From Negativicutes bacterium (GTDB lineage Bacteria; Bacillota; Negativicutes; UBA1444), in contig CAXXIN010000012.1 in the NCBI GenBank assembly GCA_963665275.2, forward strand, positions 32,001-96,000: a DNA stretch of 64,000 nucleotides. Reading direction: 5' to 3'. The notes under the pieces are model-generated. The model did not search any database, was not told the origin of the DNA, and saw only the letters and a program-made list of their open reading frames with translations. Every line of letters starts with the position of its first letter. Positions within the stretch are counted from its first letter, which is position 1. The translations under genes and the position numbers were made by a program. Positions 20,866-23,263 of this stretch are shown here, in pieces.

Positions 20866-21288
20866 CTATCGTTCCTCCCCGTTCGGTTCTTTCCCGCACG
20901 TGCTGTTTCGCTTTTCGCCAAAAGTAAACCGCGAATTCATGGCAAAATTCAAGATGCTGACCAAGCCAATGGAAACGAGCTGTGCCAGGGTCTTGTCCAT
21001 ATCGAATTTCTCGACAAAGGCTCCCAGCAACAACAAATTGAACCCGAGGTTCAGAACGCTGACCCCGAGAAATCGAAAGTACTTGTTGCGCGTGCTGCGA
21101 CTAGCGGCATGTCCCTTGAACGTCCAACGGAAGTTCCAGAAAAAATTATTGGTAACGGCAAACAAAAAGGATACCACGGCTGCCGCGAGATAATACAGAC
21201 CGCCTTGCACTGCGACCGCATACACAGCCATGTTGACCAGAGTTCCTGATAATCCGACGATCGAAAACTTCATGAATCGCTTTAACAA
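20866..21288 (-). CDS. GtrA-family flippase
   Basis: KFSIVGLSGTLVN, N.RWTF, NF..N.RFTF. Confidence 0.9.
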   Translation of the reverse strand: MLKRFMKFSIVGLSGTLVNMAVYAVAVQGGLYYLAAAVVSFLFAVTNNFFWNFRWTFKGHAASRSTRNKYFRFLGVSVLNLGFNLLLLGAFVEKFDMDKTLAQLVSIGLVSILNFAMNSRFTFGEKRNSTCGKEPNGEER

Positions 21289-21385
21289 AAAGTGGGTCCG
21301 CCTTCTTTACACAAAATTCTTTATCATTATATCACAAGGCTTCGATCAACTGTCAAAATCCATATTTTGCATAGCCTTATTATTA

Positions 21386-21414
21386 TTGATAATTTTTCTC
21401 CGCAGTCATATAAT
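21386..21414 (+). promoter_or_regulatory. SigmaA promoter of TM1266-aspA-hydF
   Basis: TTGATA-N17-TATAAT. Confidence 0.8.
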
Positions 21415-21420
21415 AATGTT

Positions 21421-21542
21421 AATATAGGGTTCCTGAGGGAGAGGGCCTAAAGCCTGACGCCGAGGGATGAACAACGCGGCGCATCAATGGGTGTGTCACA
21501 AGGTTCATCAGCTCCGCGAATTGTGCGGAGTTTTATTTTTTT
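21421..21542 (+). ncRNA. Candidate cis-regulatory structured leader (riboswitch-like) ending in an intrinsic terminator
   Basis: Stems GGGC/GCCT, GATGAAC/GTTCATC and GGCGCATC/GGTGTGTC; terminator GCTCCGCG/TGCGGAGT plus T run before the RBS; family not recognised. Confidence 0.6.
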
Positions 21543-21559
21543 AAAAGGGAGCTTGGAAG

Positions 21560-21814
21560 ATGAATTCACGTCTCGGCTTTGTTGGCATCGTTATCGAAGA
21601 TCCGTCCAGTGCACCTGACATCAACAACATCCTCAGCCGACATGGCCAAATCATTGCCGGCCGCATGGGTATTCCCCGTATTCATCACAACGAAGCGGGA
21701 ATCTCAGTCATCACTTTGATTGTGCAAGGAACTACGGATGAAATTGGCGCCCTGACCGGCCAGCTTGGCAACGTGGCCGGTGTTCAGGTCCGGTCTGCTC
21801 TGAGTAACAAATAA
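21560..21814 (+). CDS. TM1266-family iron-only hydrogenase system putative regulator
   Basis: 84 aa, GRMGIP, IGALTGQLG...GVQV; upstream of hydF. Confidence 0.88.
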   Translation: MNSRLGFVGIVIEDPSSAPDINNILSRHGQIIAGRMGIPRIHHNEAGISVITLIVQGTTDEIGALTGQLGNVAGVQVRSALSNK

Positions 21815-21832
21815 CTTTCGTGGGAGGTCGTC

Positions 21833-23263
21833 ATGTTCCGTATCGAATCCGACTTTCTTGGAGTGAAAAACGTACCGACTGATGCCTACTATGGAATCCA
21901 TACAGTCCGGGCCATGGAGAATTTCACTGTTTCGCGGCAACTGATCCATCCCGAACTGATTCGCGCCATTGCGACAGTCAAGCAGGCGGCAGCGGAAATG
22001 AACATGTCACTCGGGCTCTTGGATTCCCGACTGGGCTCAGCCATATTTCAGGCTGCCGCCGAAGTAGCAGACGGACAATTCGCCGACCAGTTCCCGTTGG
22101 ATGCGCTCCAGGGAGGCGCTGGCACTTCCACCAACATGAACGTCAATGAAGTCCTCGCCAACCGGGCGATTGAATTGTTGGCCGGTGAAAAAGGGGATTA
22201 TTCGCTGATCCATCCCCTAAACCATGTTAACCTGTCGCAGTCCACCAATGACGTCTATCCTACCGCCCTGCGTCTTGCGGCTATCCGTCTGCTGCAGGCC
22301 CTGTCCGAAGCCTGCGCCCAATTGCAGGGTTCTTTGCAGAAAAAAGAGGCTGAATTTGCTGGAGTCCTGAAACTGGGCAGAACCGAAATGCAGGATGCGG
22401 TCCCCATTACGCTTGGGCAGGAATTTTCCGCCTGGGCGGAAGCGATCGCCCGTGACCGCTGGCGCCTCTACAAGGTGGAAGAACGCCTCCGCGAAGTGAA
22501 CCTCGGCGGCACGGCCATTGGAACCGGCCTGAATGCGGAACGAAAATATGTGTTCGGCGTTGTGGAGCGTCTGCGTTCCCTGACAGGCATCGGGCTGGCG
22601 CGCGACGAAAACATGATTGACACCACCCAGAACGCCGACGTCTTTGTTGAAGTATCGGGGCTGCTCAAAGCCTGCGCCTCTACGCTGATCAAAATCAGCA
22701 ATGACCTTCGCCTGCTCTCCTCCGGTCCCCGCGGCGGCTTCGGCGAGATCCGGCTGCCGGATCTTCAGGCCGGCTCTTCCATCATGCCAGGCAAAGTGAA
22801 TCCGGTCATTCCTGAAATGGTTGCCCAAGTCGGCTATCAGATCATTGCCCGCGATCTGGCCATCACGTTGGCAGCTCAGGGCGGCCAGCTGGAACTTAAT
22901 GCTTTTTTACCGCTCATCGCCGCCAATCTGCTGCCTGGGATGGAAGAACTCACACAGGCAATGCGTCTGTTTGCATCCCGTTGCATCGACGGCATTGAGG
23001 CGGATACGGACCGGTGTCGGGCTCATTTGGAGAACAGCGTCGCCCTGATCACAGCGCTCTCTCCGCTCATCGGTTACGACCGGGCTGCCGCAATCGCCAA
23101 ACAGGCACTAAAGAATAACTCCCCCATCAAGAAAGCACTCTTGGAATCCGGTCTGTTTACCCAGGCGGAACTTGATGCTTTGTTGCGCCCGGAGACACTC
23201 ACCCGTCCCGGCATGATCAAAAGGCCGACCGCCGATAAACCAAAGGAGGCCCGCCATGAATGA
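21833..23263 (+). CDS. aspA: Aspartate ammonia-lyase (fumarase/aspartase family)
   Basis: QGGAGTSTNMN, SQSTNDVYPTA, GSSIMPGKVNP. Confidence 0.9.
   Translation: MFRIESDFLGVKNVPTDAYYGIHTVRAMENFTVSRQLIHPELIRAIATVKQAAAEMNMSLGLLDSRLGSAIFQAAAEVADGQFADQFPLDALQGGAGTSTNMNVNEVLANRAIELLAGEKGDYSLIHPLNHVNLSQSTNDVYPTALRLAAIRLLQALSEACAQLQGSLQKKEAEFAGVLKLGRTEMQDAVPITLGQEFSAWAEAIARDRWRLYKVEERLREVNLGGTAIGTGLNAERKYVFGVVERLRSLTGIGLARDENMIDTTQNADVFVEVSGLLKACASTLIKISNDLRLLSSGPRGGFGEIRLPDLQAGSSIMPGKVNPVIPEMVAQVGYQIIARDLAITLAAQGGQLELNAFLPLIAANLLPGMEELTQAMRLFASRCIDGIEADTDRCRAHLENSVALITALSPLIGYDRAAAIAKQALKNNSPIKKALLESGLFTQAELDALLRPETLTRPGMIKRPTADKPKEARHE

Follow-up and report, generated by a model that had tools for sequence, protein, structure and literature searches.

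A conserved leader RNA upstream of [FeFe]-hydrogenase maturation genes in three phyla, apparently an undescribed attenuator

The TM1266-aspA-hydF operon of a Negativicutes bacterium is preceded by a leader RNA that folds extensively and ends in a terminator. This locus raises the question of whether the leader is a regulatory RNA and, if so, what acts on it. The window analyzed here was the whole 64-kb stretch of contig CAXXIN010000012.1 that contains the operon. The leader was compared with known RNA families, with its relatives in other genomes, and with its own alternative folds. The results indicate that it is apparently a real, conserved attenuator RNA of [FeFe]-hydrogenase maturation that has not been described so far.

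The leader and its operon

The features of the locus are listed in Table 1. The promoter and the intrinsic terminator in front of the ribosome-binding site, both noted in the sequence-only reading, were present. The proposed gene order was also confirmed with curated profiles. The first gene exceeded the cut-offs of TIGR03959 (93.9 bits, cut-off 60.8, 4e-27) and PF21699 (89.6 bits, cut-off 27, 1.2e-25), the other two passed those given in Table 1, and the dimer and tetramer domains of HydF were found in the product of the third gene.

Table 1. Features of the leader and the neighboring genes (window coordinates).
Feature	Position	Strand	Evidence or description
GtrA-like gene, divergent, 5' of the AT-rich spacer that holds the promoter	20866-21288	-	PF04138
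Sigma-70-type promoter	21386-21414	+	Consensus scan, 11/12 matches, TTGATA-N17-TATAAT
-35 box, TTGATA	21386-21391	+	
Promoter spacer, ATTTTTCTCC	21392-21401	+	
-10 box, TATAAT	21409-21414	+	
Leader RNA, whole	21421-21542	+	Fold plus BLAST and covariance-model matches in relatives; start inferred from the -10 box
Hairpin A, conserved putative sensor / anti-antiterminator	21432-21466	+	R1, R2, and R3 matches, covariation, dyad symmetry
Hairpin A, unit 1, CCTGAGGGAGAGGG	21432-21445	+	
Hairpin A, unit 2, CCTGACGCCGAGGG	21453-21466	+	
Hairpin B	21466-21509	+	MFE fold; compensatory changes in helices 3-5 of alignment A3
Hairpin B, outer helix, GATGAAC / GTTCATC	21466-21472 / 21503-21509	+	
Hairpin B, inner helix, GGCGCATC / GGTGTGTC	21478-21485 / 21490-21497	+	
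Predicted antiterminator	21458-21518	+	21458-21472 with 21503-21518, fold of the shortened leader
Intrinsic terminator	21510-21542	+	9-bp stem, stem-loop 21510-21532, T-run 21531-21542
TM1266-family gene, 84 aa	21560-21814	+	First gene 3' of the leader; RBS-like AAGGGAG just upstream
Aspartate ammonia-lyase-like (AspA-like) gene, 476 aa	21833-23263	+	NF008909, 674.6 bits, cut-off 510, 7.8e-203
hydF, [FeFe]-hydrogenase maturation GTPase, 410 aa	23256-24488	+	TIGR03918, 570.3 bits, cut-off 325.55, 1.8e-171

The leader folded into three hairpins with a minimum free energy of -49.4 kcal/mol (z = -2.85), and 3 of 200 shuffled sequences folded as well. Its GC content was 0.51. The leader had been called GC-rich, which holds against the upstream spacer (0.31 at 21290-21420) and not against the whole window (0.53). 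The nested stems that had been proposed were found in place. Hairpin B consists of an outer helix that encloses an inner one, and a small GGGC/GCCT stem inside 21443-21455 is part of hairpin A. Hairpin B, the large hairpin that had been emphasized, turned out to be the variable part. The conserved core is the whole 5' hairpin, hairpin A, of which the small GGGC/GCCT stem was all that had been noted. Metatranscriptome contigs from two runs matched parts of aspA only within 21300-22300 and left the leader uncovered.

In the promoter, ATTTTTCTCC was almost invariant between the -35 and -10 boxes at the hydrogenase maturation (hyd) and ABC transporter loci across the genus, L011 being among the copies that have it. 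It was retained where the promoter lies about 25 nt farther from the RNA (L038, L039, and L032) and was not conserved in the second genus of the family (L009). TTGATAAT also resembles a Fur-box half-site. A DNA-level operator may act in addition to the attenuator.

In the window's assembly, which is 92.6% complete, HydE was found near a contig end (G000:C19:852-1841). No HydG exceeded the cut-off, and the best candidate (G000:C5:20254-21267, 186.9 bits) looked ThiH-like by score. Since the genome holds only two copies of the RNA, its hydE does not lie behind a detectable copy.

A scan of the 64-kb window against Rfam 15 at gathering thresholds gave no match. When 21300-21620 was searched at E<=10, six matches were obtained, all of them chance-like (E>=1.5) and with scores far short of gathering; the best were L10_leader (16.7 bits against 44) and STnc230 (18.4 against 50). 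At E<=1, six related loci gave three matches in all, each far below the gathering score. The leader thus reached the gathering score of no Rfam 15 family, including glycine, PyrR binding site, NMT1, nadA, folE, NiCo, and ykkC, in line with the expectation that it would match no known family. Glycine, T-box-like, and ykkC-like resemblances were dropped after these scans. An echo of the glycine aptamer had been suggested, and no glycine match appeared even at E<=10. The leader shares purine-rich GGAGAG/GAAGGG-type words with the glycine riboswitch and occurs in tandem in some species, but it contains a single symmetric hairpin instead of a three-way junction and is not a member.

Conservation of hairpin A in three phyla

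Conservation of hairpin A, accompanied by covariation, extends over Negativicutes, Thermotogota, and Clostridia, and the hairpin lies almost always upstream of hydrogenase maturation genes (TM1266, hydG, hydE, hydF, and aspA). Conservation and covariation in relatives had been named beforehand as the test of the leader, and both were found, from Negativicutes to Thermotogota and Clostridia. Their presence in related as well as distant genomes indicates a signal beyond chance.

Within the window's own genome, BLAST detected a second leader copy, 73% identical including the promoter. It precedes a permease, an ABC ATPase, and an SsuA-family binding protein (TIGR01728, 186 bits, cut-off 163.5), that is, an SsuCBA-like importer. 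A covariance model built from 15 leader copies (R1) matched all 13 genomes of the family, with 23 matches and one to three per genome. The first ORF behind these copies was TM1266-like in 11 cases, permease-like in seven, and uninformative in five, where the contig was short or the ORF lay in another frame. An order-level search returned the same 13 genomes. In the class sample, 14 of 151 genomes matched, namely the 13 of the family and G040, in which two weak matches precede TM1266-hydG-hydF. This class-level search also gave a third copy in G005, which was divergent and stood upstream of an ABC permease. The genomes carrying the leader are recorded as MAGs of Negativicutes, Veillonellaceae, Sporomusaceae, and Selenomonadales.

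The exact core pattern was found in 24 stretches among 185,579 species genomes: 18 from Negativicutes, one from Marinitoga lauensis, and five without fitting context. In Marinitoga the RNA is followed by TM1266 (PF21699, 3e-28), hydG, hydE, hydF, and aspA. The hydG of this species is present as two ORFs of 168 and 239 aa (L057 5134-6551, minus strand; profile positions 8-166 and 234-470), which may reflect a frameshift, an error in the assembly, or a gene that is split. JGI metagenomes gave 26 further stretches with the exact pattern, 14 in hyd or ABC contexts and 12 without. The contigs without a hyd context included two groups (L095, L100, and L101; L082, L092, and L093). In one of them the pattern lies 69 nt upstream of an ORF that looks by eye like a ribose-phosphate pyrophosphokinase, and in the other the hairpin can form fully.

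A model of hairpin A only (R2) matched 58 of 151 Thermotogota genomes. All 30 Thermotogota loci that were read lie before hyd genes. The first ORF was TM1266-like in 28 of them (four identified directly from DNA) and hydG in one, and the remaining locus begins with a 356-aa ORF with TM1266 behind it. Weaker second matches (five of five fetched) and the single match of G286 precede 404-aa ORFs, which were read by eye as HydF from their GRRNVGKSS GTPase start. Many Thermotogota also carry a second, weak TM1266-like ORF of about 30 bits, below the cut-off (e.g., G263:C1:1096296-1096523); in several of them it is found on the opposite strand, about 3 kb away from the hyd cluster.

Among 151 genomes sampled from the phylum that holds the Lachnospiraceae, R2 found only one real case (G433), with a tandem copy before TM1266-aspA-hydF. 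Upstream of 30 TM1266 genes of the Clostridia sample, two to five tandem (C)CUGA-N4-6-RAGGG units were present, and these mostly pair into one or two hairpins like A. A strict structural finder gave 10 matches in these 30 upstream regions, compared to 2.3 in shuffled sequences. This finder was too strict, and a cross-phylum covariance model (R3) was therefore adopted. With filters off, 19 of the 23 R3 matches at the 30 TM1266 loci lay just upstream on the coding strand, in 16 of the loci. A tandem duplication of the hairpin is frequent in Clostridia (L153 1258-1355, which is G433, and L143, L159, and L177), with the greater degeneracy in the upstream copy.

When whole genomes of the sample containing Clostridia were searched, R3 had matches in 17 of 151, 13 of them in hyd or ECF contexts. 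In nine the match adjoins TM1266, in three it stands before HydE- or HydG(-HydF)-like genes, in one before an ECF S-component, and in four within coding DNA. Around G345, 16 of 39 genomes carried 19 matches, of which 16 precede HydG-like ORFs (by eye), one a HydF-like ORF, and two an ECF S-component. The RNA is thus found upstream of a HymD-like ECF S-component in two Clostridia; one source calls this component 'HymD protein' in Thermosediminibacter oceani.

Several look-alikes were set aside. A well-formed one (L064 7362-7432, minus strand; R2, 35.8 bits) has a GCAA loop and comes from a Lachnospiraceae MAG in which TM1266 and HydF are missing; it lies between a terminator and the ribosome-binding site of a gene for an 88-aa HMA-domain protein. 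It was taken as chance because it had no match in 40 relatives and the whole collection should yield about four chance matches as strong as this one. Were it real, it would speak for an RNA that senses metal without a protein. The pattern matches L050, L065, L066, and L070 and the R2 or R3 matches in G386, G152 (C25), G320, G326, and G429 were chance-like and lay in coding or GC-rich DNA.

Hairpin A is pseudo-symmetric and carries CCUGA-N4-RAGGG on both strands together with two 2x2 purine loops. Its parts follow in the order CCU:GGG, a 2x2 purine loop, a central helix of 2-4 bp, a second 2x2 loop, GGG:CCU, and a variable cap, which makes a duplex of 35-46 nt. Across 53 sequences, the identity between unit 1 and unit 2 was 0.70, 1.0, 0.94, 0.92, and 0.91 at the YCUGA positions and 0.57, 0.87, 0.96, 1.0, and 0.79 at the RAGGG positions, but at most 0.32 at the four central, mutually complementary positions. 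Either loop reads GA/GA or GA/AA in 41 of the 53. In most Thermotogota, GGUG:CACC forms the central helix; L146 has CUUA:UAAG there and L154 has GACG:CGUC, and the helix of the window consists of two pairs with a larger loop. About 20 nucleotides, unpaired ones included, are conserved in the three phyla.

In the cross-phylum alignment of these 53 sequences, 92.4% of the cells at 11 pairs were paired, compared to at most 63.9% with slid partners. Double-sided changes occurred at seven of the 11 pairs (62 cells), and the covariation score of 0.332 (0.153 in shuffles) was reached by none of 500 shuffles. These counts lean towards structure, since the alignments were partly model-fitted or pattern-chosen. 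Narrower alignments, including A3, agreed. Hairpin A therefore has the properties of a conserved, structured sensor domain with covariation, as is expected of a riboswitch.

Predicted switch logic

Sixteen leaders, nine of this family and seven of Thermotogota, were folded with a cut just 5' of the terminator's 3' strand, at 37 C and at equilibrium without kinetics. A usable split was obtained in 13 of them (7/9 and 6/7, respectively; L023, L026, and L111 gave none). The antiterminator displaced hairpin A in 12 of these 13 and was better by 2.6 to 17 kcal/mol, L031 being the single usable leader that kept hairpin A. The gain was largest in Thermotogota (8.5 to 17 kcal/mol), where the complementarity is perfect over 12-17 nt. 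For the shortened leader of the window, the antiterminator reached -36.6 kcal/mol, compared to -31.8 with hairpins A and B. It includes the pairing of GAG at 21462-21464 with the terminator's CTC, as had been suggested. Full-length folds contained hairpin A and the terminator. In the computed folds, the expression platform is thus mutually exclusive with the sensor, as in a riboswitch.

According to these folds, a folded hairpin A would let the terminator form, and transcription would stop before TM1266-aspA-hydF. When hairpin A is open, its 3' strand would pair with the terminator's 5' strand, extending hairpin B, and readthrough would follow. Stabilization of hairpin A is predicted to mean termination, or OFF, since its 3' strand otherwise pairs with the terminator's 5' strand. 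It is very probable that the leader is a conserved OFF-type transcription attenuator with hairpin A as the anti-antiterminator. The original suggestion of an attenuator of hydrogenase maturation genes is supported. In the two ECF-S leaders (two genomes), the 3' strand of the hairpin is itself the Shine-Dalgarno sequence, and the predicted logic is the same at the level of translation.

Attenuation by a leader peptide was also considered, in which a short ORF from the ATG at 21468 in hairpin B would control the terminator. A GAGGG precedes this ATG, a 26-codon frame (21468-21548) runs into the terminator, and Rfam Trp_leader matched weakly (E = 2.1). However, the purine run abuts the ATG without spacing, and the Trp_leader match is driven by the terminator. 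Hairpin B is variable, the frame is not kept in other leaders, and the Thermotogota have no ATG there. We consider this explanation extremely improbable. The product of the 26-codon ORF is rich in His and Cys.

The arrangement resembles the PyrR-dependent pyr attenuators of Bacillus. There, termination follows when an effector binds an anti-antiterminator hairpin, the operon begins with the gene for the regulator, and each genome has several attenuators. Both systems show the order of anti-antiterminator, antiterminator, and terminator, and copies of the present RNA stand before the TM1266 operon and hydF. The present hairpin differs in being a dyad-symmetric duplex with two tandem-purine loops and no Rfam match. 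Furthermore, PyrR has a PRTase fold, whereas the candidate TM1266, a putative binder, has an ACT-like fold.

Candidates for the factor that locks hairpin A

We favor TM1266 as the effector over direct binding of a small molecule. In this proposal, the small ACT-like TM1266-family protein, which may carry a metabolite or metal from the maturation pathway, would lock hairpin A, and its oligomer would bind the two symmetric tandem-purine loops. The outcome would be feedback control of the maturases and, in the window's organism, of the SsuCBA-like importer. Taken as a whole, the statement that the leader is an OFF attenuator of H-cluster maturation genes with TM1266 as its effector is a tentative one, to which we give somewhat less than an even chance.

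The gene contexts are consistent with this proposal. TM1266 leads most RNA-bearing operons in the three phyla, being the first ORF 3' of the RNA in the window, G040, and G433 as well as in the Thermotogota loci counted above. It exceeded the cut-off in 57 of the 58 RNA-positive Thermotogota genomes, and in the Clostridia sample none of the 13 RNA-positive genomes with a supporting context lacked it. A regulator gene linked to the RNA site, as is expected of a protein-dependent attenuator, is thus found as an association. NCBIfam labels the family a putative regulator. A symmetric oligomer would suit hairpin A, because the hairpin is a dyad with the same words on both strands; PDB entry 2NZC, a relative, has four chains. 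The TM1266 fold shares the beta-alpha-beta-beta-alpha-beta topology of RRM domains. In the literature searched, no experiment on RNA binding by TM1266 was found.

The co-occurrence of RNA and TM1266 was also examined in the HydF-positive genomes of the Clostridia sample. TM1266 was present in 64 of 77, and none of the 13 TM1266-negative genomes had the RNA, for which the chance is about 0.05 if the two are independent. This is a weak test, since TM1266 is so common and only 13 genomes lack it.

Several observations speak against TM1266 as the effector. In the Clostridia sample, 14 of the 30 TM1266 loci had no detected upstream hairpin. Relatives of G345 have the RNA before hydG, hydF, and ECF-S genes, and the DNA upstream of TM1266 in G345, G389, and G430 has no such units and looks coding by eye. 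The window's protein is not basic (five Arg/Lys and six Asp/Glu). The importers in the regulon and the near-invariant loops fit a true riboswitch as well.

The TRAP and HutP proteins are ligand-activated, oligomeric RNA-binding attenuation proteins. The effector proposed here would likewise be small and oligomeric with a ligand-binding fold, and short RNA words are repeated here too, at two to five CCUGA-N4-6-RAGGG units per leader. In contrast to those systems, the units pair into hairpins with no wrapping around a ring, and TM1266 is a putative RNA binder. IscR is a DNA-binding transcription factor that exerts feedback on the isc operon. It shares with the proposed logic that a cofactor-assembly pathway represses its own genes at product excess, but control is at the DNA level there and at the RNA level here.

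A true riboswitch, in which hairpin A, as a single or tandem copy, would directly bind an ion or small molecule and the bound form would favor the terminator, is somewhat unlikely. The conservation of unpaired nucleotides across three phyla would fit it, as would the mutually exclusive predicted folds of aptamer, antiterminator, and terminator, the translational version before the ECF-S genes, and the tandem copies in Clostridia. Two unrelated importers lie within the regulon, and TM1266 genes without a detectable hairpin exist. Since the regulon joins biosynthesis with importers, the ligand could be an H-cluster product or building block, or a substrate of HymD-like ECF or Ssu-like import. 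Small hairpin-type riboswitches are known, such as THF-II (folE motif), xanthine (NMT1 motif), and NAD+-I (nadA motif). Like these, the present RNA is a rod-like hairpin with conserved internal loops, sometimes in tandem, close to a terminator or ribosome-binding site, and with transporters in its regulon. It differs from them in its conserved words and hyd gene context, and none of the three was among the Rfam matches at E<=10.

Against a riboswitch stands the small size of the sensor, in which two 2x2 tandem-purine loops interrupt a duplex. Loops of this kind usually act as rigid modules that are recognized by proteins or metal ions, rather than as pockets selective for a metabolite. Among TM1266-negative genomes, no copy with a supporting context was found, and we can name no ligand for which OFF would make sense in the maturases and in a sulfonate-type importer alike. 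An attenuator that works through a protein is no less likely than an RNA-only ligand sensor, because the sensor is a small pseudo-symmetric duplex that lies nearly always beside a TM1266 gene.

The same attenuator might instead be locked by another trans-acting factor, such as another RNA-binding protein, a maturase such as HydF, or a small RNA. The switch logic does not depend on the identity of the effector, some TM1266 genes lack a detectable upstream hairpin, and the spacer ATTTTTCTCC, conserved at both loci of the genus, hints at a further, DNA-acting regulator. However, no further candidate gene was consistently linked to the RNA, and TM1266 was the sole non-enzymatic gene that recurs beside it. 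Such a factor is unlikely.

The regulon takes in all dedicated maturation genes together with AspA, which donates ammonia, and importers, and it has the look of a feedback circuit of the cofactor type. A bolder possibility is that the RNA, alone or in complex with TM1266, responds to an organometallic compound that arises as an intermediate or product in H-cluster assembly, such as the HydG synthon or a precursor of the [2Fe] subcluster, and shuts off the maturases and salvage importers. The latter would be the HymD-like ECF S-component in Thermosediminibacter-type Clostridia and the Ssu-like ABC importer in the window. This version is speculative, and we rate it slightly below another trans-acting factor in probability.

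The literature covered here offers limited background on these genes. A role of AspA in dithiomethylamine synthesis is described in PMC11736057, which mentions neither TM1266 nor an RNA. PMC7039931 reports that the TM1266 homologue, HydE, and HydG are upregulated in T. neapolitana under CO2, and PMC12917699 that the level of the TM1266 homologue in C. sporogenes shifts with metals. A full-text search found no paper that links TM1266 to a riboswitch. Among the papers listed on hydF and hydrogenase maturation, TM1266 and its family, RNA motifs of hydG and hydE, HymD, Thermotoga attenuation, and hydrogenase Term-seq, the titles and the beginnings of the abstracts pointed to no such RNA. For the GC-IGR surveys of the Breaker laboratory (PMC8632094 and PMC11109978), the comparison covered the main text, from which hydrogenase is absent. 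A low-ranked supplementary entry for the motif is possible, since PMC8632094 included a Thermotogae genome.

In the literature searched, the regulation of HydE, HydF, and HydG is essentially undescribed, and the role of the TM1266 family is only guessed. The leader family described here appears to be widespread and to shut off the genes that build the H-cluster by premature termination. An attenuator in three phyla offers a concrete and testable regulatory mechanism together with a candidate function for TM1266, and its regulon ties two importers, the HymD-like ECF-S and the SsuA-type ABC systems, to H-cluster assembly. As a compact OFF-switch part, the RNA could also be of use in the engineering of anaerobes that produce hydrogen. 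If a pathway intermediate is indeed sensed, the RNA would be an in vivo probe for that chemistry. If organometallic sensing holds true, it would be the first cofactor-feedback sensor for the biosynthesis of a hydrogenase active site and would give the first hint of the uptake of H-cluster building blocks.
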